Virus record (IMG/VR): IMGVR_UViG_3300049846_001482
DNA length: 64,000 nucleotides
Reading direction: 5' to 3' (one strand)
Source: an uncultured virus (IMG/VR IMGVR_UViG_3300049846_001482)
Taxonomy: Duplodnaviria > Heunggongvirae > Uroviricota > Caudoviricetes
Shown piece after piece: positions 7,738 to 62,864 of the stretch (the stretch's first letter is position 1; every line of letters begins with the position of its first letter). The translations under genes and the position numbers were made by a program. The notes under the pieces are model-generated. The model made no database searches. It was not told where the DNA came from and saw nothing but the letters and a program-made list of their open reading frames with translations.

Positions 7738-7974
7738 ATGAATAGATTGCTCTTTGCATCGGGGAAGGTCATAGATAAGCCCAAGTATCATCTTGGGAAG
7801 ATATTGACGTTGAAGAAGGGTAGAGACCCCAACGACTGGGCAAAAGAACTAGAGATCGTTGGCAGGCATATAGATGGAAGGTGGATTGTTGTGGCTACTC
7901 AGAGGATGTATCCTGATGCAGCCCGCACACCTGGACCATTGGATATAGAATATTTGGATACCTACTATGAATAG
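7738..7974 (+). CDS. tag-B protein
   Basis: MNRLLFASGK. Confidence 0.7.
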   Translation: MNRLLFASGKVIDKPKYHLGKILTLKKGRDPNDWAKELEIVGRHIDGRWIVVATQRMYPDAARTPGPLDIEYLDTYYE

Positions 7975-8206
7975 ATTTAGATATCTAATGGGGTATACTA
8001 GGGCTCGATATCCGATGGTGGGAGATAGGGTGAGGGATATTGCTACGGGAGAGGTTTTCACTATCTATAAGATCGCTCCTTGGGGAAAGAGAGAGGGTTC
8101 GTATTTAGAGAGGAACTTCTATTACATCCAGCCCGCACCTGATGGAACAATCTGGTATTTGACTGCTGCTGACTTCAATGGGAAATATATTTATGAACCG
8201 AGCTAA
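7967..8206 (+). CDS. tag-B protein (SH3-like VGDRV)
   Basis: MNRFRYLMGY; 8-nt overlap. Confidence 0.7.
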   Translation: MNRFRYLMGYTRARYPMVGDRVRDIATGEVFTIYKIAPWGKREGSYLERNFYYIQPAPDGTIWYLTAADFNGKYIYEPS

Positions 8207-8513
8207 ATATATTTCTGGGGTCAAGATTCCTCGTAGAAGGCGTAGGCTTACTAGGAGGGCTTGTAGGATATGGGAAGATGAGGGTAACAGTAGATTTACT
8301 ATGCGTTTTGTTGGAGCTGAGATAGAGGTTTCTATTCATCCCCGCACTGGCGATATAGAATGGCAGATTTATAGCCTAGAGGGTGATGGAAGTGAGACTG
8401 TCTTTGGTTGGGGTAAAGCCGATTCCATTGAAGGGGCTCAGAGAGAGGGTTTAATAAGAATGAAGGATATATTGGATCGGGACAGAAGGAACCTTGTTCG
8501 GATAATGAAATGA
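8193..8513 (+). CDS. tag-B protein
   Basis: MNRAKYISGV; 14-nt overlap. Confidence 0.7.
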   Translation: MNRAKYISGVKIPRRRRRLTRRACRIWEDEGNSRFTMRFVGAEIEVSIHPRTGDIEWQIYSLEGDGSETVFGWGKADSIEGAQREGLIRMKDILDRDRRNLVRIMK

Positions 8514-8794
8514 ATAGGCTGAAATATATCAAAGGGCAAAAGAAGGGTAGGCCTAAGAGGTTTGCTTCCCGATGGATCAAGGGAAGGGATGGGGTCTATC
8601 GTAGGGATTTAGGGTCTATCTATCTCTATATCAAGCAGACAGATGAGAGTGATGTAGAGTGGAGGCAATGGGCTATTTTTATTTGCTATCAGCCGCAGAT
8701 GGGAAGTGGAATACTTCTGGCTCGGCTTGATACTTTAGAATCTGCTCAGGACTATGGACAGGAGTGGTTAGAGCGTATCATGGAGAATATGTGA
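8510..8794 (+). CDS. tag-B protein
   Basis: MNRLKYIKGQ. Confidence 0.7.
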   Translation: MNRLKYIKGQKKGRPKRFASRWIKGRDGVYRRDLGSIYLYIKQTDESDVEWRQWAIFICYQPQMGSGILLARLDTLESAQDYGQEWLERIMENM

Positions 8795-9066
8795 ACCGAT
8801 TCAAATATCTTCAAGGCGTTGAGAGGTCGCAGAAATATCCTGCCAATCCTTGGTCGAGTATTTCGGCCGGGGTAGGTATTGATGGAGTTCACATCATTGA
8901 ATATGGATTGCCGTGGAAGGGCATCACGGTCATCTATCGAAGGCACAGGACTGATGATGCAACCTATTATGTGACGCTCAATGCCTCCAAGATATCTGAG
9001 GACATGGTATCTTTTGAGGAGGCCTGTGACTGGGCTGACAAATATATGTGGGAGCATGGATTATGA
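8791..9066 (+). CDS. tag-B protein
   Basis: GTG start, MNRFKYLQGV; ends WADKYMWEHGL. Confidence 0.7.
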   Translation: MNRFKYLQGVERSQKYPANPWSSISAGVGIDGVHIIEYGLPWKGITVIYRRHRTDDATYYVTLNASKISEDMVSFEEACDWADKYMWEHGL

Positions 9067-9284
9067 ATATTTGGGATATGCACAGTGCTTCGTTGTTTGA
9101 TACAAATAAAGCATGGACTCGTGAGTATAGAGTAGCAGGGAAAGACATATCCATCGTTCATAGCAGCAATGGTTCAAGCAATCTATATTGGATCATGAGG
9201 GGTGGACGCATGCTATATGAGGCGACATCTCTTTTAGCGTCAATCCGTTGGGCCGACAAATATATTTGGGAGCATGGATTGTGA
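9063..9284 (+). CDS. untagged paralog of the preceding gene
   Basis: Ends WADKYIWEHGL. Confidence 0.65.
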   Translation: MNIWDMHSASLFDTNKAWTREYRVAGKDISIVHSSNGSSNLYWIMRGGRMLYEATSLLASIRWADKYIWEHGL

Positions 9285-9736
9285 ACCGCACCCAATATAT
9301 TTCTGGGGAGACAAACTACGAGATCAAGAAGGCGGGAACAGGTAGAGTGTCCGTCTCTCTTGCCGAGTTGGAACGTAGGGGAGATCAATTATTGAGCAGG
9401 GTTCAACAAGAGATAGACAAACAAATGTATGAGGCCGATGGAAATAGATATACCTACAAGACAAAGATCAGAGGGGATAGATTGACTTGGCATCTGACTT
9501 TTTACAAGAAGATATTCAAGGGATATACGGAGCAGAGGGTCAGGCCTGGTGGAGATTACTTGAAGACATTTTCCTACAAGCCTTTTGTCAAGAGGATGAG
9601 GGGCAAGGTCTTGTTGGAGGACGAGAAGGGTCCGTGGGTTGGCAAGAATATCTTGGTGCGGTGGGATAGGGTGGCCAAGGGTTTGAGAAAGATATCTTGG
9701 ATGAAGAGAGAGGATTTGATCTATGAACAGGTCTAG
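9281..9736 (+). CDS. tag-B protein
   Basis: GTG start, MNRTQYISGE. Confidence 0.7.
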   Translation: MNRTQYISGETNYEIKKAGTGRVSVSLAELERRGDQLLSRVQQEIDKQMYEADGNRYTYKTKIRGDRLTWHLTFYKKIFKGYTEQRVRPGGDYLKTFSYKPFVKRMRGKVLLEDEKGPWVGKNILVRWDRVAKGLRKISWMKREDLIYEQV

Positions 9737-9995
9737 ATATCTCAAAGGTGACAAGAAGGAGATATCTATTCCCTTGAGTCATTGGGAGTATAGGGACAAT
9801 AGTTTTAGGAGACCTGCGGGGCCTTTACTGGTTTATATTCTGCCTCGTAGCGTGTCGGGATTAATACGATATGGGGAGTGGCATCTCTTTGTAGCCCTTG
9901 AGGGAGCCAGGGTATTTTTGCGGGGAGCGGATACATTAGAGGAAGCTCAGGAGAGTGGAGAGAAGTGGTTGAGGGCTATTTATGAACAGGTCTAA
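9723..9995 (+). CDS. tag-B protein
   Basis: MNRSRYLKGD; resembles the 8510 gene (DTLE.AQ..G..WL). Confidence 0.7.
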   Translation: MNRSRYLKGDKKEISIPLSHWEYRDNSFRRPAGPLLVYILPRSVSGLIRYGEWHLFVALEGARVFLRGADTLEEAQESGEKWLRAIYEQV

Positions 9996-10221
9996 ATATA
10001 TTTCTGGGGTAAAGCGGCGGGCTGTCAGATATCGGCCTATTAGCAAGGGAGATCGTGTCAAAATCAAAGCGGGAACCATTAAGTTAACCGACAAATATTT
10101 CACTGAGGGTATTTGGGAGGTAGGGAGAAGGGTTCATTTAGATAGCGGCGAATATATGTTTGAGATACATCAAGACCATACGATGATGTTACTTGCTCCT
10201 TCTATGTTGGAGCGGGTCTAA
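9982..10221 (+). CDS. tag-B protein (SH3/KOW-like)
   Basis: MNRSKYISGV; paralog of the 10844 gene. Confidence 0.7.
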   Translation: MNRSKYISGVKRRAVRYRPISKGDRVKIKAGTIKLTDKYFTEGIWEVGRRVHLDSGEYMFEIHQDHTMMLLAPSMLERV

Positions 10222-10238: not shown

Positions 10239-10586
10239 ATGAGAAAGACAGCGCCGGTTCAATGCGGATATTGTGAGGGTAAGGGTTGGGTCCACGACTA
10301 TGATAAGGTGGATTGTCCCAGGTGTAAGGGAAAGGGAGAGATATCTGGGGAAGTCATCTATGTCATGCGGCAGGTCGAGAAGGCCACCCGTCTATTGAGG
10401 AAGAGGCGGGACAAGATATCTTCTCAGAATAAAAAGAGGGCGGATTGGTATAGGAACAAGGCCAATGCCATTGAGGCTCGTGGTCTTCGAGCCGCCGACA
10501 AGATCAATGCTCAGATAAGGATGGTGGCCTTGAAGATACGCAAGCAATATCCTGAGGTGGACATGAGTGGAGTCTACCGTGAATAG
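10239..10586 (+). CDS. DnaJ-type zinc-finger protein
   Basis: CGYCEGKG and CPRCKGKG; GGAGG RBS. Confidence 0.7.
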   Translation: MRKTAPVQCGYCEGKGWVHDYDKVDCPRCKGKGEISGEVIYVMRQVEKATRLLRKRRDKISSQNKKRADWYRNKANAIEARGLRAADKINAQIRMVALKIRKQYPEVDMSGVYRE

Positions 10587-10857
10587 GAGTAAATATATTT
10601 CTGGATATCAGAAGCCTGCTCTTGAGGATATCATTGCGCCTGGGCAGGTTTGGCGTGGCAAGTTGTGTAACGTCAAATATATGTTGATACGGATTACGAA
10701 GAAGATATCTCCTCAGGGTTGGGCTGTTGAGGAGGTCGGTGAGGATGGAAAGGCCATAGATTCAGATGTTGCTTTTCCCCGATTCATGACTGAGGCCTAC
10801 ATCAAGGAGATCTACGTCAACGATGCTTTGATGTGGGATAGATATGGAAAGGCATAA
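10579..10857 (+). CDS. tag-B protein
   Basis: GTG start, MNRSKYISGY. Confidence 0.7.
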   Translation: MNRSKYISGYQKPALEDIIAPGQVWRGKLCNVKYMLIRITKKISPQGWAVEEVGEDGKAIDSDVAFPRFMTEAYIKEIYVNDALMWDRYGKA

Positions 10858-11083
10858 ATATATCTCTGGAGCCAAGCCCAAACCTATGAGGCGTAGGCCT
10901 ATAGGTAAAGGCGATAGGGTCAAGATAAAGAAAGAAGACCTCAGGATCGCCAAGAAGTATTTTGACTTGAGCGGGGCCTGGGAAGTAAAGCGTGTGATTA
11001 GAATGGGTGGAAATAGGGTATTGGAATTGGAGCGAGGAGATAAGATGTTCTTCTGCAATCCATATATTGTGGAACGGGTATGA
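10844..11083 (+). CDS. tag-B protein (SH3/KOW-like)
   Basis: MERHKYISGA; RPIGKGDRVKIK. Confidence 0.7.
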   Translation: MERHKYISGAKPKPMRRRPIGKGDRVKIKKEDLRIAKKYFDLSGAWEVKRVIRMGGNRVLELERGDKMFFCNPYIVERV

Positions 11084-11322
11084 GGTATTGGAGTTGGCTC
11101 AAGTATTTATATCTGACGAGGCATCGGCCTAGGTATAAGGTCGGGGATATTTTGCAGCACCGAGAGAATGGAGAGTTCATTCAGTTGGTGGACTCTTTTG
11201 CCGCACCTTTCATTAAGCTTGAGCCTGGGGATATGAAGGTGGCCTATAAATATCGGGTGGGAGATAGCGAGTTCAGCATTGGAAGTGAGGGGTTGGATTT
11301 CTCTTATAGGAAGGTCCAATGA
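11080..11322 (+). CDS. hypothetical protein
   Basis: ATGA overlaps at both ends. Confidence 0.6.
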   Translation: MRYWSWLKYLYLTRHRPRYKVGDILQHRENGEFIQLVDSFAAPFIKLEPGDMKVAYKYRVGDSEFSIGSEGLDFSYRKVQ

Positions 11323-11504
11323 ACCGCTTTAAATATCTCAAAGGTCTAAAGTGGAAGAGGACTGAGGAATATAGTATTAACTTTAGCGTGATAAAGAACA
11401 AGAGTACCGATCATGTCTTTTGGATACGAGAGTCCCCGATGGATCACTCACGAATCGTCATCAAGAAGACTCCAGCGAGGGAGTTTTATTATGAGGCGAG
11501 ATAA
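11319..11504 (+). CDS. tag-B protein
   Basis: MNRFKYLKGL. Confidence 0.65.
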   Translation: MNRFKYLKGLKWKRTEEYSINFSVIKNKSTDHVFWIRESPMDHSRIVIKKTPAREFYYEAR

Positions 11505-11655
11505 ATATTTGAAGGGTGAGAAGACCAACAAGGAGCAGGCCCGCAGGAAGGCCATTGCCGCACAACTGCAGGGGTTGGCTGATAGATTGGGTCAGGGAGA
11601 GGATTACGACAAGCTAAGAAAAGAAATTGATAGGTGGAAGAATGAACCGAAGTAA
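11491..11655 (+). CDS. tag-B protein
   Basis: MRRDKYLKGE. Confidence 0.65.
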   Translation: MRRDKYLKGEKTNKEQARRKAIAAQLQGLADRLGQGEDYDKLRKEIDRWKNEPK

Positions 11656-11872
11656 ATATATTATGGGCCAAGATAATAAGCGAGCTCGTGCCTTGGTGGT
11701 GGTTCGAGCCATCAGCAGGGAGTTGGATTTTTTAGAGCAGAGTTCTCGCAATCCCTACAATCATCCCTCTCTCAATAAGATGAAGGTAGTCGTGGGCCTT
11801 AGTTTTCTCTTGGATAGTGTCTTTGAAGATACTTCGATTGGAGTGAATCCATGCAAAGAAATAAATATCTAA
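11642..11872 (+). CDS. tag-B protein
   Basis: MNRSKYIMGQ. Confidence 0.65.
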   Translation: MNRSKYIMGQDNKRARALVVVRAISRELDFLEQSSRNPYNHPSLNKMKVVVGLSFLLDSVFEDTSIGVNPCKEINI

Positions 11873-12024
11873 GGGGTGAGAAGACTGACTTTGAGGGACT
11901 TCGCAAAGCATCCCAAGAGGAATATGAAAAGGCATTGGCTAAGATGGTCGAAGAGAATAAGGTGATGGCAAGTCCTCACTATGACACCTTTGGTCGGATG
12001 GGGTTGATTCATGAACCGAAGTAA
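11851..12024 (+). CDS. tag-B protein (57 aa, not in ORF track)
   Basis: Hand translation MQRNKYLRGEKTDF...IHEPK*. Confidence 0.6.
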   Translation: MQRNKYLRGEKTDFEGLRKASQEEYEKALAKMVEENKVMASPHYDTFGRMGLIHEPK

Positions 12025-12310
12025 ATACATCTCTGGATATCGTAAGCCTGTGTTGCCTGATCCGCTCCCAGACTTTGTTGTGGGTGATCGGGTTGTCTTC
12101 AAGCGGGATATTTGGAATGGGTTTGACTGGGCTGCGTTCATTGGATATTCTCAGCCGCCGACTTTTAGGACTAGGGGTATCGTTGTCAATGCCAGCACTT
12201 CTATTATTTATGTTCGGTGGGAGGAGTATGTGCCGACATCGGGGCGGGGAACACTCTTTGAATATGTCAAGACTGAGGATGTCGAGAGGATAATTCCGGA
12301 GAAGGCTTAA
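12011..12310 (+). CDS. tag-B protein (SH3-like)
   Basis: MNRSKYISGY. Confidence 0.7.
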   Translation: MNRSKYISGYRKPVLPDPLPDFVVGDRVVFKRDIWNGFDWAAFIGYSQPPTFRTRGIVVNASTSIIYVRWEEYVPTSGRGTLFEYVKTEDVERIIPEKA

Positions 12311-12338: not shown

Positions 12339-12644
12339 ATGAACCGGAGCAAGTTCCTCTCTGGATATGTAGCCCCAAAGGCGCAGCCTATCTATAAGAC
12401 TGTCTATGCTGGGGAGAAATATATTCAGAAGGACATTGGAGCTTTGGATGTTGCTGGGCGGCCTGTCAAGCGTCAGGTGGTCACAATAAAGTCGTGGCAT
12501 CCCTCAGAGCAGCCGACCAATGTATTTCATCCAGATGGAAATACGGATCCCTACTTCTCTTATTTCAAGGTAGAAGAGAACGATAATGTAAAGTATTGGG
12601 CTGACAAGTTCATTGAAAATTGGGAACTCTATGAAGAGAAGTGA
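12339..12644 (+). CDS. tag-B protein
   Basis: MNRSKFLSGY. Confidence 0.7.
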   Translation: MNRSKFLSGYVAPKAQPIYKTVYAGEKYIQKDIGALDVAGRPVKRQVVTIKSWHPSEQPTNVFHPDGNTDPYFSYFKVEENDNVKYWADKFIENWELYEEK

Positions 12645-12969
12645 TTACATTTCAGGTGCACCCTCAAAACCCATGCCACCCAGACCTCTTGAGATCTGGA
12701 AGAGCAAGAATGGATTTGTGGTTGTTGTCAGGAATACTGAGAGGGGAGTCAAGGTAAGGTTCATTGAATGGGACAAGGAGAAGAAGAGGTATGTTTATCC
12801 TTTCCTTCCCACCATTGATGGCAGACATCCAGACATCAACAGATATATCCACCTAGATAAGTTCGGTGGCTATCAGTATGTTGAGAGCGTTAAGATGTTA
12901 GCTTCGCTGGAGCGTAAGTTGCCACCAGAGCCGGTGTTCTCATTTGGATATGGATATGAACAGGGCTGA
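12631..12969 (+). CDS. tag-B protein
   Basis: MKRSDYISGA. Confidence 0.7.
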   Translation: MKRSDYISGAPSKPMPPRPLEIWKSKNGFVVVVRNTERGVKVRFIEWDKEKKRYVYPFLPTIDGRHPDINRYIHLDKFGGYQYVESVKMLASLERKLPPEPVFSFGYGYEQG

Positions 12970-13240
12970 TTATGTATCTGGTAAACCAATGCCCAAGTTA
13001 GAGGTTGGGGCTAGGGTTAAGTTAAGTCGTGACCTGATCATGAAGATGCACAAGGGACCACAGAAATTTCTACCAGACCAAGAGGAAGAGTGGTTAAGAC
13101 AGATTTTGGATATGCGAGGGGTTGTTTTGAAGATAAACGAACAAGATAGGGTCAAGGTAGCTGCAAATATTCAATGGACTTACGAGGGTAGGTCTTGGGC
13201 AAATAGCTATTACATTGAAGACTTGGAATTGGTGCCTTAG
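12956..13240 (+). CDS. tag-B protein (SH3-like)
   Basis: MNRADYVSGK. Confidence 0.7.
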   Translation: MNRADYVSGKPMPKLEVGARVKLSRDLIMKMHKGPQKFLPDQEEEWLRQILDMRGVVLKINEQDRVKVAANIQWTYEGRSWANSYYIEDLELVP

Positions 13241-13248
13241 GAGGATTT

Positions 13249-13389
13249 ATGAACCCGTTGGAGAAGATTGCTTTTGAGTTGAATGGTGGATGGCCTGCCT
13301 TGATCGGCATGTGGGTAGCTTCTGCCATCAAATATCTAGCAATAGGTTTTCTGTTTGGATTGGGATTGAGGTGGGCGTTCTATCTATGA
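13249..13389 (+). CDS. 46-aa membrane protein
   Basis: AGGAGG RBS; hydrophobic; ATGA overlap with 13386. Confidence 0.55.
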   Translation: MNPLEKIAFELNGGWPALIGMWVASAIKYLAIGFLFGLGLRWAFYL

Positions 13390-13727
13390 ATAGATTTAGG
13401 TATCTCAAAGGTGACAAGGTAGAGAGTGTCATCAAGGAGTTCCCGATAGTCAACAATGTTATCGAGGTCTCTACTATGAATGATCTGGAGGAAGCCGCCA
13501 GATTCATCAGGTATAGATTTGGGAGCAATGAGATTTATCCTGCAGATGAGACGAGGGATATAAGCAATCTTCGTTATGGGTGGGTTTTTGATGGAGGAGA
13601 GCAAGTCATTCAGGTGACTGCCAAGATGCTTCTGTTGAATAAAGATATGAGTGAGGAAGATAGGAATAGATATTTCAGGAGCGAAAGAGGAAAGATGGCT
13701 TATGCAGCCCATCTTCTGACTTGTTAG
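13386..13727 (+). CDS. tag-B protein
   Basis: MNRFRYLKGD. Confidence 0.7.
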   Translation: MNRFRYLKGDKVESVIKEFPIVNNVIEVSTMNDLEEAARFIRYRFGSNEIYPADETRDISNLRYGWVFDGGEQVIQVTAKMLLLNKDMSEEDRNRYFRSERGKMAYAAHLLTC

Positions 13728-18227: not shown

Positions 18228-18557
18228 GTGAGGTTAAAGGCAGAGGAAAAGTTCAATCTTGCGGTTGTGACCTTGATCATATTGGGCGCTGTAGGTCTGT
18301 GGTACTCATCACAAAGAGCATATGAGACGCAGTGGAGTAGTTGGCCAAAATACTATCTGCAATGGGAGCCAAGTGGAAGGCAGGCTCAGGTTATCCCAGC
18401 CTATCAGCGTGAAGGCTGCATTGTCATTGGTGACATCAGAACCTCTCTTGGCGATGGACTCCTGACAGTTTCAACCTACGAGAAGGGGAGAGTCTTTAAG
18501 TGTGAGACAAAAGATTCTCCCTGCTTTGAAGTAGCCCTTTGTGAAAGAGTCAAGTGA
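18228..18557 (+). CDS. membrane-anchored hypothetical protein
   Basis: AGGAGG RBS before GTG; N-terminal TM helix. Confidence 0.6.
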   Translation: MRLKAEEKFNLAVVTLIILGAVGLWYSSQRAYETQWSSWPKYYLQWEPSGRQAQVIPAYQREGCIVIGDIRTSLGDGLLTVSTYEKGRVFKCETKDSPCFEVALCERVK

Positions 18558-18754
18558 ATAGAAACAACTTCCTACTCGGCGTCAAACCATCCAGATGTCG
18601 GGCTGGGCAGGTATGGTACAACCCATCTGTCTTTGCCGACCCCCGAAGGATTACGCTTGCACAGAAAGACGACGACCTGATGTGGAAGCTGAGTGATGGA
18701 ACCTACATAGCCGAAGATCTGATACTGCAGTATTTTGTCTTGGAGCAACCATGA
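18554..18754 (+). CDS. tag-B protein
   Basis: MNRNNFLLGV. Confidence 0.65.
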   Translation: MNRNNFLLGVKPSRCRAGQVWYNPSVFADPRRITLAQKDDDLMWKLSDGTYIAEDLILQYFVLEQP

Positions 18755-26674: not shown

Positions 26675-26808
26675 GATACCTAGTGCTGCTAATGTTCTTG
26701 GTCGCTGGCTGCGCCGAGATTCAACTCGTCAACCCCAAAGAAGATTGCAGGGGCAGATATGGCGAGAAGTCTGGCACTCCCTCATATCCCTGTGAGTGCT
26801 GCAGATGA
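26671..26808 (+). CDS. small lipoprotein
   Basis: MRYLVLLMFLVAGC lipobox; AGGAG RBS; ATGA overlaps. Confidence 0.55.
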   Translation: MRYLVLLMFLVAGCAEIQLVNPKEDCRGRYGEKSGTPSYPCECCR

Positions 26809-52970: not shown

Positions 52971-53189
52971 TTACTCGTGATTTTCGTCACTCTCTACCCA
53001 TTCAAAGTCTTCTAAAAATGATATTAATGGGTAGACGTGATCTTCGCTTTCAAACCTATAAATCCAGAAAACCTTTTCTTTATCTACCTTTTTAACGAAG
53101 CACTCCATGTTCTGAACCTTATGACGCCACTTCTGCCCAGCCCAGACTTTGAGTGGCTTCTGGTTCTTGAGGTAGGCTTGGCGTTTCAT
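52971..53189 (-). CDS. tag-B protein
   Basis: MKRQAYLKNQ. Confidence 0.65.
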   Translation of the reverse strand: MKRQAYLKNQKPLKVWAGQKWRHKVQNMECFVKKVDKEKVFWIYRFESEDHVYPLISFLEDFEWVESDENHE

Positions 53190-53575
53190 TTGGCTCCGGG
53201 ATATCTTTGATTCAGCTCATCAACTGACTTTTGAAGCATGTTTTGATATTCGCCCATGTCTTGCACTGTGTAGCCTGCAGGACGAGTCTCTAGGACAAAG
53301 CCAACGTGTTCGCCATGCCATTTTATTTCAACTGGCATTCCTGTGTTGTCTCCCATCCAGGGACTAGCCTGATTCCATTGGATGTGATCATGGTGAATGT
53401 TTTGGTAATGCCTAAAGCCATGTAAGCCAACCGAACCATAGGACTTTAAGTTAAACCCATGTATCACCGCAGCCACCCCAATGTAGGATCCGCCGCTGCC
53501 TGGTATCATAAACTTCACTTGGTCGTACAGCAATGGTGGCTTTTGATAGCCACTCAAAAAGTCATATCTATCCAT
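53186..53575 (-). CDS. tag-B protein
   Basis: MDRYDFLSGY. Confidence 0.7.
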   Translation of the reverse strand: MDRYDFLSGYQKPPLLYDQVKFMIPGSGGSYIGVAAVIHGFNLKSYGSVGLHGFRHYQNIHHDHIQWNQASPWMGDNTGMPVEIKWHGEHVGFVLETRPAGYTVQDMGEYQNMLQKSVDELNQRYPGAK

Positions 53576-53892
53576 AGATACTTCCTCGACTTCTTCAATA
53601 TGAAATAGAGCGCCCGAAAGGACGCCTTGCAGAGTCCGAAGTTATAGAGACTCCAAATAAAGTTATACTTTAGTGATAGCACCTTTGCAGCAGCATCGGC
53701 ACCCGAATAGATGAACATGCCTTTGCCGTGAGGTATGACCAGATGGACATCTCTCTTGATGGCTGCTTGGATGCCCCTGATCTTGCATTGGTGGTTTGGG
53801 ACTATCTTGATGCCTATATGCTTCTTAAGCCGTTTAGCCAGCCCAGAGCAGAAGGGACAAGATGAGTCGTAGATGAGGATTGCCTTTTTCAT
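53554..53892 (-). CDS. DCC/DUF393 thiol-disulfide oxidoreductase-like protein
   Basis: LIYDSSCPFC, IYSGADA. Confidence 0.7.
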   Translation of the reverse strand: MKKAILIYDSSCPFCSGLAKRLKKHIGIKIVPNHQCKIRGIQAAIKRDVHLVIPHGKGMFIYSGADAAAKVLSLKYNFIWSLYNFGLCKASFRALYFILKKSRKYLWIDMTF

Positions 53893-54491
53893 ACCCAACC
53901 AACTCCCAGCTCTTCTTCGCCCTCCATCTCTCTTGCTTCTTTTAGAGCCTCAATGAGAGGGGTAAAAGCGGCTTCCTCGAACTTCTCGGCATCCAAATCC
54001 ATACCAAAAACAGAACTGTTGCCACTAGAGCCGATTTTGCTCAGCTCGTCAGCCCTCTCATTCATCTCTCTGGGTATCCACTTTAACTCAACTGGCACGG
54101 GTGACTCAGCCATTGCCTTGAGTATCTTGTCCCGCAGAATGGTCAGGACGGGATTCTTACCAGAGGGGTCGTAGGACTGGTTCTTGAGCGTGGTGATCAG
54201 TATCTTTGAGTCAGAGCAAATGATGGCGCTATCAAAGGTCTCGGAGAACTTCTTGGACTTTAGGAACTTGACAGCCATGAGCATACCCAGGTATTCCATC
54301 TGGTTGTTGGTAGCTGTATCAGCCACAAAACAGGAGATGCCAACCTTCTCGTCGCCCAAATTGTTGGCGCAGGAAAGACCAAAACCCCCAGGACCGGGGT
54401 TGGCATGGGAGGTGCTGCCATCAACATAGATGTAGCCAACCTTCGTCAACTCCCTCTCCTTCTTAGGTTCCAAGAATTCATAGCGATTCAT
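53889..54491 (-). CDS. rnhA: ribonuclease HI with N-terminal tag B
   Basis: YVDGS..NPGPGGFG, TNNQMEY, SDS, WIPREMNERADELS; starts MNRYEFL. Confidence 0.88.
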   Translation of the reverse strand: MNRYEFLEPKKERELTKVGYIYVDGSTSHANPGPGGFGLSCANNLGDEKVGISCFVADTATNNQMEYLGMLMAVKFLKSKKFSETFDSAIICSDSKILITTLKNQSYDPSGKNPVLTILRDKILKAMAESPVPVELKWIPREMNERADELSKIGSSGNSSVFGMDLDAEKFEEAAFTPLIEALKEAREMEGEEELGVGWV

Positions 54492-55027: not shown

Positions 55028-55482
55028 TAGTCTTCAGTCAATCCTTTGCCGCATCGTGGGCATGTGTGTCTGTTGGGGTCTGCCTTCCACTTCTTGTATG
55101 TTGGCCACTTCATGTTGTGATACTTACGCCAGTTCCTTTTCCATGAGTAGTAGACCATCCACCAAGAGTGTATCTCCATTGCCACATAATCTCTAGCTAC
55201 ATCGTCTGGACCGGCCGAAAGCCTTGGATTTGGCTCGTAGTGTCTGTGGACTATCCTTACCACTGGGTTGTATTTCCAGCGAATCAGATCCTGAATGAAG
55301 CTGTCGTCAAAGTGTATCCAGCGTGGGCGTAGATACTCAAAGAAGTCATCAATAAAACAGCTAAGGGGATTGTAGCCAAAGAGTCTAAAGGTCTTCCAGA
55401 ACTTCAAACGTGGCTTGAACTTCCACGTCCAGAAGTCGTCTTGTTCCCAGTTGCATGTTTTACAATAGATGAATGACATCAA
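55027..55482 (-). CDS. zinc-binding hypothetical protein
   Basis: CKTC...CPRC; WEQDDFW. Confidence 0.6.
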   Translation of the reverse strand: MMSFIYCKTCNWEQDDFWTWKFKPRLKFWKTFRLFGYNPLSCFIDDFFEYLRPRWIHFDDSFIQDLIRWKYNPVVRIVHRHYEPNPRLSAGPDDVARDYVAMEIHSWWMVYYSWKRNWRKYHNMKWPTYKKWKADPNRHTCPRCGKGLTED

Positions 55483-55799
55483 TACAACCCACGGAAGTTA
55501 TCCATATTAGCTTGTAGTAGTTGCTTCATTGTTTTGCTTATCTGTTGGTCCAAAAACTCCTTCACCTTCTTCTCGTCCTCTGGGTCTGTGAACTGAGAGC
55601 CCAACTCTTCCCAGGTAAACTTGTGCAGCCCACCACCCTGAACGCCTTTGTGGTGATGCTTCGAAACAACCCACCCATCCTCTTGCTTGGTGTGGAGGGT
55701 GTATTGTTCGCCAGTTGTCTTGTTGGTGATCTTGTCTCCAACCTCACCCCAGGTCATGACTGGCTGGCGCTTGGCGGAGACAAACTTATTTCTTTGCAT
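55479..55799 (-). CDS. tag-B protein
   Basis: MQRNKFVSAK. Confidence 0.65.
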   Translation of the reverse strand: MQRNKFVSAKRQPVMTWGEVGDKITNKTTGEQYTLHTKQEDGWVVSKHHHKGVQGGGLHKFTWEELGSQFTDPEDEKKVKEFLDQQISKTMKQLLQANMDNFRGLY

Positions 55800-56028
55800 T
55801 GAAAACCGTCTCCCCAGTCTTGGGATGCTTGTCAAACGAGATCTTCTTCTGTCGCTTCAATAGATTGATGAAGACAAAGACCTCTATCATGTCTTTGCTA
55901 AAGCCAAAGTCGGCATTGAGACCTTTCGTTATCTGCACAGTCGAAAGACCAGGATGCTCCCTGATGTAAGTCAGGACGAGATCCTGGTCAAACGATGGTT
56001 TGCGTGATAAGAAAGTCCTACGTCGCAT
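55786..56028 (-). CDS. tag-B protein, winged-helix-like
   Basis: MRRRTFLSRK; VLTYIREHPGLSTVQI. Confidence 0.65.
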   Translation of the reverse strand: MRRRTFLSRKPSFDQDLVLTYIREHPGLSTVQITKGLNADFGFSKDMIEVFVFINLLKRQKKISFDKHPKTGETVFNAKK

Positions 56029-56246
56029 TACTTCTTAGCGGAAGGCTTTTCTTTGCTAGGAGCAGCAATAAACTTCTCTATGGATTCCAGACCATCGGCA
56101 GCGGTTTTCAGAAGCACCAGCCGCCCACTCTTGTATCTATTGCTAACGTGACCCTTGATCTTCTCAATAGATGCATTTATTCTTTCTAGGCTCTGGTTCA
56201 TTTCGATATCTTTCTCTTGTTTTTTTACCACGATCAGTCCCTCCAT
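56028..56246 (-). CDS. hypothetical protein
   Basis: Coupled ORF. Confidence 0.5.
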   Translation of the reverse strand: MEGLIVVKKQEKDIEMNQSLERINASIEKIKGHVSNRYKSGRLVLLKTAADGLESIEKFIAAPSKEKPSAKK

Positions 56247-56494
56247 CCATATAGGTTAGCTAGAAATTCCTGAACCTTCCGATGTTCCGCTTCCGTCTTG
56301 GTGATCCATTCCCACTGCTCTCTTGTTATTTCAGCCTTCTTGTAAGATGGTATCTCTGCCAACTTCTCGCTGTGGATGTCTACCGAGAAGTCTGGATAGA
56401 CCTCATCCACGCTTACGAGAATAGAAAGATTGTCTCCACCAAACTCTGTGGGTCTTACCACAACCTTCTCGGATACAAACGCTTCTCGTTTCAT
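56234..56494 (-). CDS. tag-B protein
   Basis: MKREAFVSEK. Confidence 0.65.
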   Translation of the reverse strand: MKREAFVSEKVVVRPTEFGGDNLSILVSVDEVYPDFSVDIHSEKLAEIPSYKKAEITREQWEWITKTEAEHRKVQEFLANLYGWRD

Positions 56495-57216: not shown

Positions 57217-57245
57217 ACTATAGGTTGTTAGAGGGAAATTGTCAA
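57217..57245 (-). promoter_or_regulatory. sigma70-like promoter
   Basis: TTGACA-17-TATAGT. Confidence 0.7.
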
Positions 57246-57505
57246 GTTAAATCGGTGAGGGGTTTGTATTGATAGTGTTGCTTTAGGTGGGAAATGCTGA
57301 GTTCGAAGATGCCTGATCCGCCTGCCAAAGTCCAATCGGCGTTGTTTTGGGTCTGCTTTACCCAGGGGATGCAGTTGTAAGTATTATTTCCTATGTATGA
57401 CATTATGATGACGGCTTCGTGTGGGTATGCTTTTTTGACCCACAATTGATTGGGGAGGATATGTATCTCTTTCTTGTCATCGGCTACGAAGTTGTATCGG
57501 TTCAT
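57242..57505 (-). CDS. tag-B protein
   Basis: MNRYNFVADD. Confidence 0.65.
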   Translation of the reverse strand: MNRYNFVADDKKEIHILPNQLWVKKAYPHEAVIIMSYIGNNTYNCIPWVKQTQNNADWTLAGGSGIFELSISHLKQHYQYKPLTDLT

Positions 57506-57735
57506 GTTTGTTTTTTGTAGAAGCTCAAAATGTAAGATTCGAGTAAGTCTTTTGTTCCATTGTCGTGAACCTTAAAGTTGCCCTTCATTGTTTCGTGAAC
57601 GCTCCACGATTGAGTCTTCTTCTCAAGGATGGTGATGTAAGACCCATTAACCTTATTAACCCATTTCTCTCCAACATTGATCTTGGATTCGACAAAGGGC
57701 TGTCTTTGCTTAGTGATAAAATCGTGCCTTCTCAT
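57502..57735 (-). CDS. tag-B protein
   Basis: MRRHDFITKQ. Confidence 0.65.
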   Translation of the reverse strand: MRRHDFITKQRQPFVESKINVGEKWVNKVNGSYITILEKKTQSWSVHETMKGNFKVHDNGTKDLLESYILSFYKKQT

Positions 57736-58886: not shown

Positions 58887-59138
58887 CTATAGATGTAGGT
58901 TGGATTCTTTTATCCAAAGATATCCCATAGTATCATTAACAATTGTGACCATCCACCAAAGACCATCGCTACGTAATTCGGACTTTTCTAACCTCACCGT
59001 TGTATTCTTTTCGCTTTCTGAGTTTACTGAGTCTCCGTTTTGAAATAAGATCCTACTGACATCGGCACCAATCTCCATGCCGATTTGAGGAGATATCTTC
59101 TTCCTCTTGTCACCAGCGGCAAACCTGTTGCGCTTCAT
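58887..59138 (-). CDS. tag-B protein
   Basis: MKRNRFAAGD. Confidence 0.65.
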   Translation of the reverse strand: MKRNRFAAGDKRKKISPQIGMEIGADVSRILFQNGDSVNSESEKNTTVRLEKSELRSDGLWWMVTIVNDTMGYLWIKESNLHL

Positions 59139-59425
59139 GGAACAAAGCTTAAATCTTCGGCTTTAAACCAAACTGTCTTAGAGGGTCCGGTAAGTTCTTG
59201 CATAGTGACCTTGTAGGTATTTTTACTGGGATTGTAAGCAGAGGCTATACCATGATTGCTATAGGTACAGTAGCTGCCTCCAGAATAGTGTCTTTGAGGA
59301 GATTTTGAATTCATATCCTCTGGCTTCAACATTCGACACATGGCTTCGAGGGACACGAAGCACTTTTTCCACATTGGCTGTATTCTTAGTTTTTTTGTCG
59401 TGTCCGAAAACGCCACCCTATCCAT
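59135..59425 (-). CDS. tag-B protein
   Basis: MDRVAFSDTT. Confidence 0.6.
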   Translation of the reverse strand: MDRVAFSDTTKKLRIQPMWKKCFVSLEAMCRMLKPEDMNSKSPQRHYSGGSYCTYSNHGIASAYNPSKNTYKVTMQELTGPSKTVWFKAEDLSFVP

Positions 59426-59696: not shown

Positions 59697-60080
59697 CTAA
59701 GCCCTAAAGGGTGGCATTGAGAGATTCTTTATAGACTCGTAGCCATCGTACTCATCAATGTCAAAGCATGTACCTGGAGAGACCCACTCAACAGTCAATC
59801 CCTCCCAACCACCAGCAAAAGGAGTCTTGTCACCGAAAAGTTCCTTGAGGATGGCTTTTACGCCAGCCTCTCCGTCAGGCTTTCCATCCAAAACCCATCT
59901 TACGAGCTTGGGATGAAATGCCATGATCTCCTTCTGGTCATCGGTTGCCCAAGAGGTCCAACCAGCACCATAGCCAGGTGAGTAAAGCACAGCAATCCTA
60001 TCTTCAACCACATAGCGTGATACAGATGGGAAGGTTACTTCCTCTCCTTTCTTACCTGATGCAAAGTCGTTGCGATTCAT
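59697..60080 (-). CDS. tag-B phage protein
   Basis: MNRNDFASGK; AVLYSPGYGAGWTSW...IDEYDGYES. Confidence 0.7.
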   Translation of the reverse strand: MNRNDFASGKKGEEVTFPSVSRYVVEDRIAVLYSPGYGAGWTSWATDDQKEIMAFHPKLVRWVLDGKPDGEAGVKAILKELFGDKTPFAGGWEGLTVEWVSPGTCFDIDEYDGYESIKNLSMPPFRA

Positions 60081-60283
60081 TTCTTTGGAAGGTAATTGTC
60101 CATCTTCTTGATGAAGTCATCAGAGATGAGGGTCTGACCAGCAGCAGCATGGCCAGGACCGACCATCTTCTGTCCAGTCAACTTGCTCTTGGAAGCCTCA
60201 GCTTCGGCCTTCGCCTTGACTTCTGCCTCAGCGACCTTCTCTGGGTCTTCCTTCTTGCCTGATGCGAAATCGTTGCGGTTCAT
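60077..60283 (-). CDS. tag-B protein
   Basis: MNRNDFASGK. Confidence 0.65.
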   Translation of the reverse strand: MNRNDFASGKKEDPEKVAEAEVKAKAEAEASKSKLTGQKMVGPGHAAAGQTLISDDFIKKMDNYLPKK

Positions 60284-60452: not shown

Positions 60453-61040
60453 TTACGGCTCTCGCAGCTTAACGATCTCGTCGATGAGACCGTATTCCTT
60501 GGCCTCTTCGGTGGTCATCCAGTAGTCACGCTCACAGTCCTTGTTGACCTGCTTGGCGGTCTTGCCGGTGTAGATGGCCATCTTGGCTTCGAGCAGGTCA
60601 CGCAGGCGCTGGATCTCCTTGGCCTGGATCTGGATGTCGGTTGACTGTCCACCACCGCCACCCGAAGGCTGGTGGATCATGATGCGGGCATTGGGGAGAG
60701 CCCTGCGCTTGCCCTTGCTGCCAGCCGAGAGCAGGAAGGCTCCCATTGAGGCGGCTTGACCCAGGCAGATGGTGGAGACGGGGCACTTGATGTATCGCAT
60801 GGTATCGTGGATAGCCATGCCAGCCGAGATGCTGCCGCCGGGGCTGTTGATGTAGAAGAAGATGTCCTTCTCAGCGTCTTCGCTCTCAAGGAAGAGCATC
60901 TGAGCCACGATGGCATTGGCCACGTAGTCGTCCACGGGAGTTCCCAAGAAGACGATGCGATCCTTGAGCAAGCGAGAGTAGATGTCGTATCCACGCTCAC
61001 CAAACGGGGTCTTCTCCACGACCATAGGGATGAGTGACAT
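60453..61040 (-). CDS. clpP: ATP-dependent Clp protease proteolytic subunit
   Basis: [47 protein letters not shown]. Confidence 0.97.
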
Positions 61041-61050
61041 GGCTTTCCTT

Positions 61051-61713
61051 TCAGACGTAGGGTTGTTGGAAGATTTCCAGTGTTACCGTATTGATGCCTG
61101 TTAGAACCTTTGATGCCGAGCTGTCGATACAGAGAGCATATTGCTTTCCGTCGTATTCCAACCAGCGAAGACCCCAGTTGGAGTTGTGTCCAAACACTTG
61201 CAGCTTTTCCTTCATGTCAATTGGATAGCCCCTGTTCCATATGAGGCTTGATCCATTAGCCAACTCCATGCTCTTCAAGCCCTCTAGCGAATAGAAGCCG
61301 CTGACAGGGGCATGGCTAAAGAAGAAGGCTTCGTGTTCAAGATAGGTTGGAAGAGACTCCATCCACTTTACATGCTCTTCAGGAACCCACTGGAACAACT
61401 CGCCTCTCTTGGTGGGAGTCCAGACATCGGCTGTCTCTGGCACCCCGTAAGACTCAAGTGTTGCATCACCGCCGTTCATGAACCAGATGCCGTCTTCATA
61501 CTGATGTGAGCCACGCATGAAATCAATCATCATGTGTTCGTGGTTGCCCATCAGGACTTTAGCGTTCTTCATGGCCCACTCAACAACTTGCTTGGAGTCT
61601 GGTCCACGGTCAATGAGGTCGCCAAGCAGCAATGTCTCTTCGCCCTTTGGCATCTTCTCCAGTAGAGCCAAGAGAGTTTTGTATTGCCCAGCGACATCAC
61701 CTATTACGTTCAA
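61051..61713 (-). CDS. metallophosphoesterase / Ser-Thr protein phosphatase
   Basis: [27 protein letters not shown]. Confidence 0.88.
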
Positions 61714-61914
61714 TCAGTACTCCACCAAGAAATCGCCACGCCATTGGTGTAGGATGTATTTTTTGTCCACTGAAAGAATGTCGATTCCATGTACGGCAGA
61801 GACCCCGTACTTCCATTCTTTCTCCACTCTATTGGGAGTAGCTACTTGTTCGTTTTTCAAATTCTTGAAGGTCTTAACACACTTTCCGCCGCTGTAGCAT
61901 TTAACGGTTGCCAT
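61714..61914 (-). CDS. hypothetical protein
   Basis: Coupled ORF. Confidence 0.5.
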   Translation of the reverse strand: MATVKCYSGGKCVKTFKNLKNEQVATPNRVEKEWKYGVSAVHGIDILSVDKKYILHQWRGDFLVEY

Positions 61915-62170
61915 GTTTTGTCATCCCTTGATACTGGTAGTAGTCTTTCAGCAAAGTTTCATGAGAGATTTGAACAACCTCTTTTCTACCAAGTACATTA
62001 AACGAGGCTTCCCAAATCACAACATTATGGCTTGGCACCAAACGCCTGTCAAGCGAAATGTATAGGCCGCCATCTTTTTTAACCCAGATTTCTCCCACCT
62101 TTGGCTCGAAAAACTCCTCCACTTGCTTGGCTTCTGTGGGGATATTCTGGATGAACTTGTATCTATTCAT
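61901..62170 (-). CDS. tag-B protein
   Basis: MNRYKFIQNI. Confidence 0.65.
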   Translation of the reverse strand: MNRYKFIQNIPTEAKQVEEFFEPKVGEIWVKKDGGLYISLDRRLVPSHNVVIWEASFNVLGRKEVVQISHETLLKDYYQYQGMTKHGNR

Positions 62171-62538
62171 GTGCCTTCTAACCAATCATTGTCAATGCTG
62201 GCTCGTGGGAAAGGCATTGGCGGAGCGCCGATGTTTTCTACTCCACCATTCATTCGTTCTTCGGGAGGAATGATGGTGCCAGTATTGCCGTCGATGTTGT
62301 TTCCAATGACCACTGTATTGTATGGTGTGATGCCTTGTTCTGGATTCCTTACCACTATTCCACCATTCACGGTAATGACACCATCGATCAAAATGCGTCC
62401 ATCTGCATAGAGTCTGATTGCCGACTGTCCATTAAGGACAGCCACATGTTCGTTTTCAGTCCCCTCATCGACCCTAGTTACTTTGGGGTCAAAAGGTTTG
62501 ACTCTTGATTTGCCAGATGTGAAATCACTTCGCTTCAT
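62167..62538 (-). CDS. tag-B protein
   Basis: MKRSDFTSGK. Confidence 0.65.
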   Translation of the reverse strand: MKRSDFTSGKSRVKPFDPKVTRVDEGTENEHVAVLNGQSAIRLYADGRILIDGVITVNGGIVVRNPEQGITPYNTVVIGNNIDGNTGTIIPPEERMNGGVENIGAPPMPFPRASIDNDWLEGT

Positions 62539-62864
62539 TTTTGCGTCTCAACCTTTACGTGTTTCACGATAGGTCTGTTGGTTTTCTTGTTCAACCATTT
62601 AGTGCCGACCTGAATCCAACCATCTTCACTGGAATACTCAACCGTCTTACCCTTCGGTCCACCTGTTCGATACCTCATTCTTCCACGACCCAAGATGCGA
62701 ACTTTGGTGAATGAGACTTCTCTTTCAATCACACCTACAGGCCATTTTGCAAAAAACTTGTATTTCTTGATCTTCTCGCCACCAGTTTCAAGAGAAACAT
62801 AGTAGGGAGCATAGATCACTAGATGATTCTTTGGGAGGTCTCTCAAAAAGTCATACCTATTCAT
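62535..62864 (-). CDS. tag-B protein
   Basis: MNRYDFLRDL. Confidence 0.7.
   Translation of the reverse strand: MNRYDFLRDLPKNHLVIYAPYYVSLETGGEKIKKYKFFAKWPVGVIEREVSFTKVRILGRGRMRYRTGGPKGKTVEYSSEDGWIQVGTKWLNKKTNRPIVKHVKVETQK

Follow-up and report, generated by a model that had tools for sequence, protein, structure and literature searches.

A portable N-terminal peptide motif on 66 small soluble proteins of an uncultured phage

The DNA analyzed here (the window) is a stretch of 64,000 nucleotides from an uncultured tailed virus of the Caudoviricetes (IMG/VR record IMGVR_UViG_3300049846_001482). Sixty-six of the soluble accessory proteins encoded in it carry a portable short linear motif at their N-terminus, hereafter Tag B. 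The core reads M-[NK]-R-x-x-[FY]-aliphatic and is usually followed by x-[GN] and a spacer rich in Lys, Arg, and Pro. As an initial annotation of the sequence had proposed, Tag B is the second N-terminal tag of the window, independent of the first (Tag A), and precedes diverse soluble bodies. Most of these bodies have no detectable homology to one another. The count given there of approximately 66 genes, with 19 at positions 7738–13727, 19 at 18554–27101, and 28 at 29070–62864, was reproduced gene by gene (Table 1), and the four N-termini quoted as examples (MNRSKYISG, MNRTAFASG, MKRDKFVRG, and MDRYDFLSG) were all found among the strict matches.

Candidate starts were collected from all six reading frames (ATG, GTG, or TTG; open reading frames (ORFs) of at least 30 residues). 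The strict pattern M[NKDR]Rxx[FY][LIAV]x[GN] matched 43 of the 2555 starts, and a loose pattern, M[NKDRQ]Rxx[FY][LIVAMT], contributed 16 additional genes. One further protein carries the tag displaced by an extra residue (MANRYKF), and six are variants recognized with a position matrix, whose scores were bimodal and placed the six clear of the background (e.g., MERHKYISG, MNKHKFISG, and the missed gene at 39444–39782). Several statistics refer to the 59 members defined by regular expression or to the 60 strict, loose, and displaced genes. Gene numbers stem from our own simple gene caller, which returned 166 genes for the window, 151 of these within 7738–62864; for tagged genes, the start was picked because it yields the tag. 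In 200 mononucleotide shuffles of the window, the mean number of strict matches was 0.035 and the maximum 1, compared with 43 observed. Unrelated viral DNA contained three strict matches among 34,273 starts (80 IMG/VR loci, 1.26 Mb); these control loci were IMG/VR matches to the RNase H alignment, all of them distant RNase H genes (best segments of 23–44% identity). Of 44 occurrences of the strict motif, 43 were at residue 2 and one was at residue 3; no others were present in 20,172 residues, for which shuffles predict 0.65.

Such a motif might be a product of the DNA, such as a start/stop overlap, a ribosome-binding or downstream-box sequence, or a recombination site. In fact, 45 of the 60 tagged genes share bases with the gene before them (24 by ATGA and 21 otherwise; the remaining 15 show no overlap or head an operon), which favors second codons starting with A, i.e., Asn and Lys. 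However, 36 of the 60 genes lack ATGA, and per-protein shuffles that kept Met1 and residue 2 (n = 2000), and thereby modeled the ATGA overlap, produced 0.015 strict matches on average and never more than 2, against the 43 observed. The enrichment thus survives the modeling of start/stop overlap, one of the points on which the initial annotation had staked its proposal. When two tags had the same residue at a position, the codon was also the same in 1760 of 5206 pairs (0.338), compared with 0.342 expected from the codon usage of the window. Arg3 is written with all six codons (AGA, AGG, CGA, CGC, CGT, and CGG), and third codon positions within the tag hold almost no information. Since the synonymous sites are fully randomized, selection acts on the peptide and not on the DNA. 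The conservation of Tag B is peptide-level selection, and the nucleotide explanation, to which we assign a vanishingly small probability, is refuted by the shuffles and the codon randomization.

Among the 59 regex-defined members, Met1 and Arg3 are invariant. Position 2 is Asn in 33 proteins, Lys in 16, Arg in five, Asp in three, and Gln in two. Position 5 is Lys or Arg in 27 and Asp in 14, position 6 is Phe in 37 and Tyr in 22, and position 7 is Leu, Ile, Ala, or Val in 58. Position 8 is often Ser (23/59), position 9 is Gly in 36 and Asn in nine, and Arg does not belong to the eight commonest residues at position 4 in the 59-row table. The Lys/Arg/Pro linker described previously was recovered at positions 10–16. 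The median isoelectric point (pI) is 8.9 for Tag B proteins, 8.3 for untagged proteins, and 5.65 for Tag A proteins. When a profile of the Tag B N-termini was run against a set of 5.8 billion proteins, limited to longer proteins and with 7,996 candidates scored, three proteins of the window were returned and no others, and a Pfam scan of the 81 window proteins of at least 100 residues gave no family that spans the tag.

None of the 60 Tag B proteins has a hydrophobic segment of the transmembrane type, compared with 16 of 76 untagged proteins (Fisher's exact test, p = 5.7e-5); the 30 Tag A proteins have none either. The reported absence of the tag from membrane and secreted proteins therefore holds. 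The same numbers speak against an export signal, be it a degenerate twin-arginine translocation (Tat) signal or another secretion signal. A few tags do open in the manner of a Tat signal (MRRRTFLS in the window and MNRRSFISG in the related metagenome locus L037), and of the three strict matches that arose by chance in the control phages, one is of typical Tat-like form, hydrophobic stretch included. Yet Arg occupies position 2 in only 5 of 59 tags, and the residues that follow are Lys, Arg, and Pro instead of a hydrophobic region. Export is thus refuted as the function of the tag and retains hardly any probability.

Tag B is an add-on placed before standard folds, namely RNase H, VWA, and zinc ribbons. 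Orthologues of the RNase H, with 75, 66, and 49% identity on contigs of 13.6, 1.3, and 175 kb, share the N-terminus M[NK]RYxF[LMI]EP, and three cellular-type RNase HI proteins (29–33% identity) begin at the first strand, without the 17-residue extension. In an AlphaFold2 model of the phage enzyme with a mean predicted local distance difference test (pLDDT) score of 84.7, residues 1–14 scored below 50 and were unstructured, and the fold started at residue 18; this model is modest evidence because its alignment has only seven rows. The zinc-ribbon protein 24731–24970 has orthologues in two relatives that start with MNRYRF (61% identical) and MNRFRF, and the linker to the first Cys is scrambled. 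The tag also sits before the domain in a VWA-domain protein encoded on G001, a 205,426-bp IMG/VR contig of the same phage. The tag is predicted to be disordered or flexible. Its description as an amphipathic docking peptide was not borne out, as the models indicate flexibility only.

The bodies behind the tag are largely dissimilar. After trimming of the first 12 residues, an all-versus-all BLASTP comparison (E < 1e-3) yielded three pairs that involve Tag B genes, and iterative hidden Markov model (HMM) searches linked 5 of 90 trimmed bodies (Tag A and Tag B together). In a PHROGs search, 86 of these 90 tagged proteins had no match. Recognizable Tag B bodies are the RNase H and the zinc-ribbon-like proteins 24731–24970, 47768–48082, and 39444–39782. 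The ESM Atlas neighbors of 12011–12310 were KOW, SH3, Agenet, and DUF4926 proteins, all under the naming bar. SH3/KOW-like and zinc-ribbon bodies are plausible, with weak structural neighbors, in line with the SH3/KOW-like domains and zinc fingers named in the initial annotation. Its remark that most recognizable enzymes lack the tag holds generally, with the RNase H of the window and the VWA protein of G001 as exceptions.

A motif-anchored alignment revealed a subfamily that the HMM searches had missed. Its 13 rows, one of them from the related locus L035, share the tag, a spacer, GQxW with an invariant Trp, a small beta domain, and a C-terminal LLxxY. In an AlphaFold2 model (mean pLDDT 70, and 57–61 in the tag region), the members fold into a small domain of beta-sheet that begins at residue 24. 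When this model was compared with the PDB by Foldseek, nothing was found at E ≤ 0.001, the best neighbors being PWWP, KOW, and SH3-like domains. Another 13 Tag B members open their body with a VGDRV-like strand. Paralogy is partial, because the 13-member subfamily exists although the HMM searches link only 5 of 90 bodies. Tags of neighboring genes are identical at 4.2 of 11 positions, compared with 3.2 for distant genes. Since neighboring tags are more alike and body frames are shared, the history was mostly tandem duplication with runaway divergence of the bodies under a fixed N-terminus, along with some transfers onto other folds.

Tag A, with the pattern MIS[YFH]RQ[AS]DL[LMI] or a variant shifted by 1–3 residues, is carried by 30 genes, all on the minus strand. 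The encoded proteins comprise 80–264 residues (median 131), are mostly acidic, and are otherwise unrelated. As the Ser of Tag A is written with both TCN and AGY codons, this tag too is selected as a peptide. Its RQADLL core may resemble bacterial clamp-binding motifs, and its overall form may be similar to the capsid-targeting sequence (CTS) of phage T4. None of the beta-clamp Pfam families gave a match in G001.

The motif TTTTATAWWWWWGTARTA is located ~20 nucleotides (nt) upstream of the first gene in four Tag A arrays (17630, 29032, 39420, and 47703). It also precedes the tail-fiber-like gene 6155–7639, the GH64 gene, and genes in the sheath/baseplate region of G001, and its distance to the start codon is about 20–50 nt across sites. 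It is probably a late-type promoter giving near-leaderless transcripts. Two sub-operons with Tag B genes among their members are also preceded by this motif. Four Tag B genes at operon heads (starts at 29493, 62864, 43601, and 35153) have sigma-70-like promoters that end 7–24 nt before the start; sites of this type were not enriched overall (19 vs. 15.5 in shuffles), and the two large plus-strand Tag B arrays have no recognizable promoter at their head. The early expression assumed in the initial annotation was thus not borne out: promoters are mixed, two large arrays show no recognizable promoter, and some Tag B genes stand behind late-type motifs, so that the label is unproven. Strong TTGACAAG-N15-GTTATACT promoters occur approximately every 1 kb before small genes in G001 at 179–202 kb and in the window at 1–5 kb. 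The true early region of the phage is probably located here, and tagged genes are nearly absent from it. A 14-base string within 29470–29492, between the sigma-70-like −10 box and the start of 29493, is identical to the T7 promoter core. A T7-type promoter was dismissed at this site because the string is unique in this setting and a phage-type RNA polymerase was not detected; the match is probably due to chance.

Our preferred, though tentative, interpretation is that Tag B acts as an N-terminal handle or degron for an AAA+ unfolding and proteolysis machinery; we regard it as possible but not as probable. One common partner would read the free N-terminal peptide, and the reader might be the phage ClpX-like ATPase, ClpP, the ClpS-like adaptor, or the Clp system of the host. 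The tag would give the fast-evolving accessory set a common, programmable lifetime, and the flexible basic spacer could be the site where the unfoldase engages the chain. The ClpP gene lies within a Tag B operon, and the ClpS-like gene adjoins a Tag B gene. In favor of this reading, the phage also codes for the ClpX-like ATPase, two further AAA proteins, GroEL, DnaJ, and a deformylase. The format of Tag B resembles that of the N-terminal ClpX signals of lambda O and Dps, which combine an extreme N-terminal position, a basic residue, two hydrophobic residues, and a flexible stretch (table in PMC8138137). This likeness is a lead only. The known signals are degenerate and occur on single proteins, whereas Tag B is a nine-position consensus on at least 60 proteins.

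The phage ClpS-like protein aligns weakly with Escherichia coli ClpS (E 0.05). Residues aligned to N34, D36, and H66 are kept, and D35, T38, and M40, three positions of the binding pocket, are replaced by N, S, and F, respectively. The subfamily comprises approximately 40 proteins in which NN[DE] replaces the canonical NDD. A complex prediction for the ClpS-like protein (41-row alignment) and residues 1–30 of Tag B (59 rows) gave a score of 0.00 with no controls and weighs neither way. The subfamily search also returned giant proteins of 3719, 1872, and 1026 residues with 22, 11, and 11 ClpS-like stretches, respectively.

A number of observations are difficult to reconcile with an AAA+ handle. 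The connection of the tag to Clp and AAA+ proteins is one of genome proximity only. Nine conserved positions including the invariant Arg3 are tighter than in known, degenerate degrons, and the Asp found at position 5 in 14 of 59 tags misfits a basic degron position. Canonical ClpS requires a free Leu, Phe, Trp, or Tyr, and the tags start with Met-[NKDRQE]-Arg and expose none of these; the Phe or Tyr would be offered only after a hypothetical cut before residue 6. The GQxW...LLxxY set is a diverged paralogue family, the timing of expression appears mixed by the promoter evidence, and there is no obvious rationale for a phage to destabilize more than 60 of its own proteins. Moreover, Tag A stands behind late-type promoters common to tail genes, which suggests a virion role for at least one tag, perhaps for both.

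Transport in the virion is the alternative to be weighed most closely, although we consider it rather unlikely. Tag B would bind a scaffold or inner-capsid component, so that the small proteins are packed and delivered with the DNA, e.g., to counter host defenses, possibly with later removal of the tag. In form, the nearest precedent in print is the T4 CTS, an N-terminal peptide of ~10 residues on highly basic internal proteins, any fusion to which is packed (PMC8442874). According to PMC3012670 and PMC8442874, it is the sole feature common to the diverse internal proteins, and it is portable in that it suffices to pack foreign proteins. Like the CTS of IPI, IPII, IPIII, and Alt, Tag B occupies the extreme N-terminus of unrelated, small, mostly basic, and fast-evolving proteins, which are soluble and encoded in tandem arrays. 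Tag A arrays share TTTTATAWWWWWGTARTA with tail-fiber-like, sheath, and baseplate-region genes, three of the four Tag A genes of G001 are near the structural block, and two Tag B sub-operons are downstream of the motif. On the other hand, Tag B and the CTS printed in PMC8442874 have at most Met1 and one aromatic residue in common. The CTS is followed by a prohead-protease site, and Tag B by no conserved Glu-type site or other cleavage motif of the T4 kind. Only a handful of proteins, all proven virion components, bear the CTS, compared with ~66 for Tag B, and a cargo of over 60 different species would be unprecedented. Unlike the T4 genes, some Tag B genes belong to operons that have sigma-70-like promoters and also encode enzymes of housekeeping type (ClpP, a phosphoesterase, a nuclease, and the RNase H). 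The basic character is hardly distinctive given that untagged proteins are nearly as basic. Transport in the virion would be likelier for Tag A than for Tag B.

The portability, disorder, and conservation of the tag fit equally well with a docking peptide for a different hub, such as the replisome or nucleoid, a host hub, a chaperone (DnaJ/GroEL or host DnaK), or a phage compartment; in a variant, the proteins might be held on nucleic acid by the basic arm alone. The bodies that could be typed are related to nucleic acids (RNase H, zinc ribbons, and beta-barrels with weak PWWP, KOW, and SH3 neighbors), and the genome encodes a tubulin/FtsZ-family protein, DnaJ, and GroEL. A linear docking motif, however, need not sit at residue 2, as it does here in 43 of 44 cases, and the beta-clamp search of G001 had been negative. 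The phage compartment suggested by the initial annotation found no backing: phiKZ gp54, the phage-nucleus shell protein, gave a best tblastn E value of 3.5 in the 269 kb of window and G001, and the phage encodes sigma factors instead of the multisubunit RNA polymerase of its own that is typical of chimalliviruses. Overall, we judge docking at another hub to be unlikely. Still less likely, in our view, is that no common partner exists and that the tag is the inherited first segment of expanded paralogue families, kept for folding, solubility, or early elongation. Tandem duplication predicts the greater likeness of neighboring tags, the GQxW...LLxxY and VGDRV-like groups show shared ancestry of bodies, and the bodies are short enough to lose detectable homology. 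But RNase H, VWA, and zinc-ribbon proteins do not form one family, the RNase H model places the tag outside the fold as a disordered segment, and orthologues retain it next to a scrambled linker. The bodies have diverged past detection while five to seven tag positions remained fixed, and the second tag, Tag A, exhibits the same pattern.

Tag B and Tag A belong with the portable terminal recognition peptides, among which they are remarkable for their scale and the pairing of two tags. Neither was found in the searched literature library, by literal tag strings or by words. Terminal tags that are read by one machine, such as ssrA, the T4 CTS, and signal peptides, have become highly useful biological handles. 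In RXLR and PEXEL effectors of eukaryotic pathogens, a short N-terminal address behind a signal peptide is found on hundreds of diverging proteins. The logic would be the same as for Tag B, by analogy; the organisms and the machinery differ, and the sequences are unrelated. It is conceivable, though we hold it with reserve, that the two N-terminal peptides form a two-letter address code that sorts nearly 100 accessory proteins of the window alone into two destinations or fates. One possible split would be an effector arsenal delivered with the virion and a second group that the phage AAA+ machinery recruits or times. If true, about 63% of the genes in 7.7–62.9 kb would be cargo of a phage sorting system with dedicated receptors, possibly a new one. 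As it stands, roughly two thirds of a 55-kb region in a phage of at least 400 kb are spent on Tag A and Tag B proteins. A reader, once found, would provide a common fate for nearly 100 orphan genes and the logic of a huge-phage accessory proteome, and it could supply a portable tag of a new type for targeting or degradation. In metagenomes, this gene class and phage lineage can be recognized in practice by MNRxx[FY] at residue 1.

Bases 1–127 of the window are identical to bases 205300–205426 of G001, and the join is inside a DUF932 gene; the window thus continues G001. Adding the 195,487-bp contig of the window to the 205,426 bp of G001 gives a genome of at least about 400 kb, for which the 90% completeness estimate of the IMG/VR contig would be too high. 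The phage is a myovirus: G001 encodes a tail sheath, baseplate J, large terminase, split Pol III alpha, RecA, NusG, two sigma-70-family factors, and the tubulin/FtsZ-family protein. Its proteostasis genes code for GroEL, DnaJ, a ClpX-like ATPase, an AAA protein of 595 residues, and a peptide deformylase, to which the window adds ClpP, the ClpS-like protein, an AAA protein of 303 residues, and a papain-like peptidase. Among 6,735 starts in G001, there were three strict and six loose Tag B matches (one of the latter an internal start in the terminase gene) and four Tag A starts, so the tags are concentrated in the window. Three of these four Tag A genes are in or beside the structural block.

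Both tags also occur in related metagenome loci. L037, L032, and L035 contain orthologues syntenic with the window (30–66% identity), and in L035, a 4.7-kb contig from another sample, a tandem run of seven MNR genes precedes three Tag A genes of the same orientation. The Tag A pattern was detected at 26 distinct metagenome loci, 13 of which have Tag A at ORF starts, often in arrays; five of these 13 carry Tag B genes as well. The other 13 loci look like chance matches. Within IMG/VR, the Tag A DNA pattern was found only in G001. The tagged orthologues and arrays identify both tags as a trait of a lineage of very large freshwater phages and not of one genome. A sequencing run that contained all sampled words of the window is labeled as a freshwater sediment metagenome. 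Parts of the window are matched at ≥99% by contigs from two further freshwater studies, and contigs of three DNA runs cover only pieces of 7700–27100. A megablast search with 20 kb of the window against 50,697 phage records gave no match.

Table 1. Coordinates of tagged genes, promoter motifs, and other features. Positions refer to the window unless G001 is stated; aa, amino acids.
Feature	Position	Strand	Details
Tag B strict	7738..7974	+	78 aa, MNRLLFASGK
Tag B strict	7967..8206	+	79 aa, MNRFRYLMGY
Tag B strict	8193..8513	+	106 aa, MNRAKYISGV
Tag B strict	8510..8794	+	94 aa, MNRLKYIKGQ
Tag B strict	8791..9066	+	91 aa, MNRFKYLQGV
Tag B strict	9281..9736	+	151 aa, MNRTQYISGE
Tag B strict	9723..9995	+	90 aa, MNRSRYLKGD
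Tag B strict	9982..10221	+	79 aa, MNRSKYISGV
Tag B strict	10579..10857	+	92 aa, MNRSKYISGY
Tag B variant (E at position 2)	10844..11083	+	79 aa, MERHKYISGA; body paralogous to 9982-10221
Tag B strict	11319..11504	+	61 aa, MNRFKYLKGL
Tag B strict	11491..11655	+	54 aa, MRRDKYLKGE
Tag B strict	11642..11872	+	76 aa, MNRSKYIMGQ
Tag B loose	11851..12024	+	57 aa, MQRNKYLRGE
Tag B strict	12011..12310	+	99 aa, MNRSKYISGY; putative small beta-barrel-like body (lead only)
Tag B strict	12339..12644	+	101 aa, MNRSKFLSGY
Tag B strict	12631..12969	+	112 aa, MKRSDYISGA
Tag B strict	12956..13240	+	94 aa, MNRADYVSGK
Tag B strict	13386..13727	+	113 aa, MNRFRYLKGD
Tag B strict	18554..18754	+	66 aa, MNRNNFLLGV
Tag B strict	20429..20662	+	77 aa, MNRQDYLKGK
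Tag B variant (K at position 3)	20655..21050	+	131 aa, MNKHKFISGA
Tag B strict	21037..21282	+	81 aa, MRRYKFISNV
Tag B loose	21279..21599	+	106 aa, MKRLVFLTSN
Tag B strict	21586..21804	+	72 aa, MKRDKFVRGE
Tag B strict	21797..22189	+	130 aa, MNRQKFLSGY
Tag B strict	22737..23015	+	92 aa, MKREKFARGD
Tag B loose	22990..23250	+	86 aa, MKRHRFLTEK
Tag B strict	23639..24040	+	133 aa, MKRSLFLTGE
Tag B loose	24037..24384	+	115 aa, MNRIKYITRT
Tag B strict	24381..24728	+	115 aa, MNRTAFASGK
Tag B loose	24731..24970	+	79 aa, MNRTQFITDN; zinc-ribbon-like body
Tag B strict	24967..25353	+	128 aa, MNRNKYAAGH
Tag B strict	25350..25622	+	90 aa, MNRQKFAQGF
Tag B strict	25693..25998	+	101 aa, MDRLSFASGI
Tag B loose	25995..26435	+	146 aa, MKRHSFVSTK
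Tag B variant (weak: T at position 6)	26435..26674	+	79 aa, MNRYKTLSTE
Tag B strict	26805..27101	+	98 aa, MNRTAFLLGT
Tag B strict	29070..29414	-	114 aa, MKRTDYLQGK
Tag B strict	29493..29801	+	102 aa, MKRQDFAGGR; sigma-70-like promoter ends 24 nt upstream
Tag B loose	34830..35153	-	107 aa, MKRHDFIQYD; sigma-70-like promoter 10 nt upstream
Tag B variant (weak: K3, N9)	35212..35745	+	177 aa, MNKISYLLNK
Tag B strict	36844..37077	-	77 aa, MKRIDFASNK
Tag B strict	37074..37310	-	78 aa, MNRTAFLMNK
Tag B-like ORF missed by gene caller	39444..39782	-	112 aa, Cys-rich, MNRHKFLNPS
Tag B loose	43335..43601	-	88 aa, MKRVLFLSQK; sigma-70-like promoter 12 nt upstream; adjoins ClpS
Tag B strict	47768..48082	-	104 aa, MDRHRFIKNT
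Tag B variant, one extra residue	48099..48449	-	116 aa, MANRYKFLINK
Tag B strict	49813..50166	-	117 aa, MNRTSFVTNK
Tag B strict	50466..50732	-	88 aa, MNRIKYLTNK
Tag B strict	51517..51921	-	134 aa, MRRTDFVNNP
Tag B strict	52971..53189	-	72 aa, MKRQAYLKNQ
Tag B strict	53186..53575	-	129 aa, MDRYDFLSGY
RNase H with Tag B as 17-residue N-terminal extension	53889..54491	-	200 aa, MNRYEFLEPK
Tag B loose	55479..55799	-	106 aa, MQRNKFVSAK
Tag B loose	55786..56028	-	80 aa, MRRRTFLSRK
Tag B loose	56234..56494	-	86 aa, MKREAFVSEK
Tag B loose	57242..57505	-	87 aa, MNRYNFVADD
Tag B loose	57502..57735	-	77 aa, MRRHDFITKQ; modeled small beta-sheet domain from residue 24
Tag B strict	58887..59138	-	83 aa, MKRNRFAAGD
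Tag B variant (weak: S at position 7)	59135..59425	-	96 aa, MDRVAFSDTT
Tag B strict	59697..60080	-	127 aa, MNRNDFASGK
Tag B strict	60077..60283	-	68 aa, MNRNDFASGK
Tag B strict	61901..62170	-	89 aa, MNRYKFIQNI
Tag B loose	62167..62538	-	123 aa, MKRSDFTSGK
Tag B loose	62535..62864	-	109 aa, MNRYDFLRDL; heads long minus-strand operon, sigma-70-like promoter 7 nt upstream
ClpP, candidate reader	60453..61040	-	Pfam CLP_protease, E 2.9e-81; within Tag B operon
Divergent ClpS-like adaptor, candidate reader	42768..43121	-	Pfam ClpS, E 1.3e-10; adjoins Tag B gene
GQxW...LLxxY members	10579-10857, 12631-12969, 18554-18754, 20655-21050, 22737-23015, 24967-25353, 26805-27101	+	
GQxW...LLxxY members	36844-37077, 52971-53189, 57242-57735, 61901-62170	-	
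Tag A regions	13724-17630, 27093-33395, 37403-39420, 43642-44037, 46909-47703	-	
TTTTATAWWWWWGTARTA sites, window	7670-7689, 17632-17651, 29033-29053, 34790-34808, 39421-39441, 47728-47747, 52905-52923, 58715-58734	-	
TTTTATAWWWWWGTARTA sites, G001	about 2609, 30228, 38382, 50998, 61850, 62532, 169356		
HAD/phosphomannomutase-like gene and cytidylyltransferase	35730-36918		
MerC	49458-49826		
DCC1-like thiol-disulfide oxidoreductase	53554-53892		
Secreted non-specific endonuclease	56491-57192		

Two contigs depart from the window within tagged regions. One, from another freshwater-sediment run, diverges upstream of 26014, and its loose end at this point reads as a different MNR-type start. Another joins 14102 to 16934, both within Tag A start regions, and skips six Tag A genes; the shorter side of this join has only 27 letters, so that assembly may have produced a chimera where the tag is repeated. 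The minus-strand genes 6155–7639 and 45461–46675 code for paralogous tail-fiber-like proteins that share their N-terminus, and the first contains NHL/beta-propeller repeats. The operon of 45461–46675 also includes a Tag A gene, a Gly/Ser-rich protein of 72 residues, and the papain-like peptidase (44532–45311), which has a C-terminal hydrophobic segment. Finally, the minus-strand gene 33395–34756, located behind a late-type motif, encodes a GH64 beta-1,3-glucanase (Pfam E 4.9e-44), an enzyme unusual for a phage.

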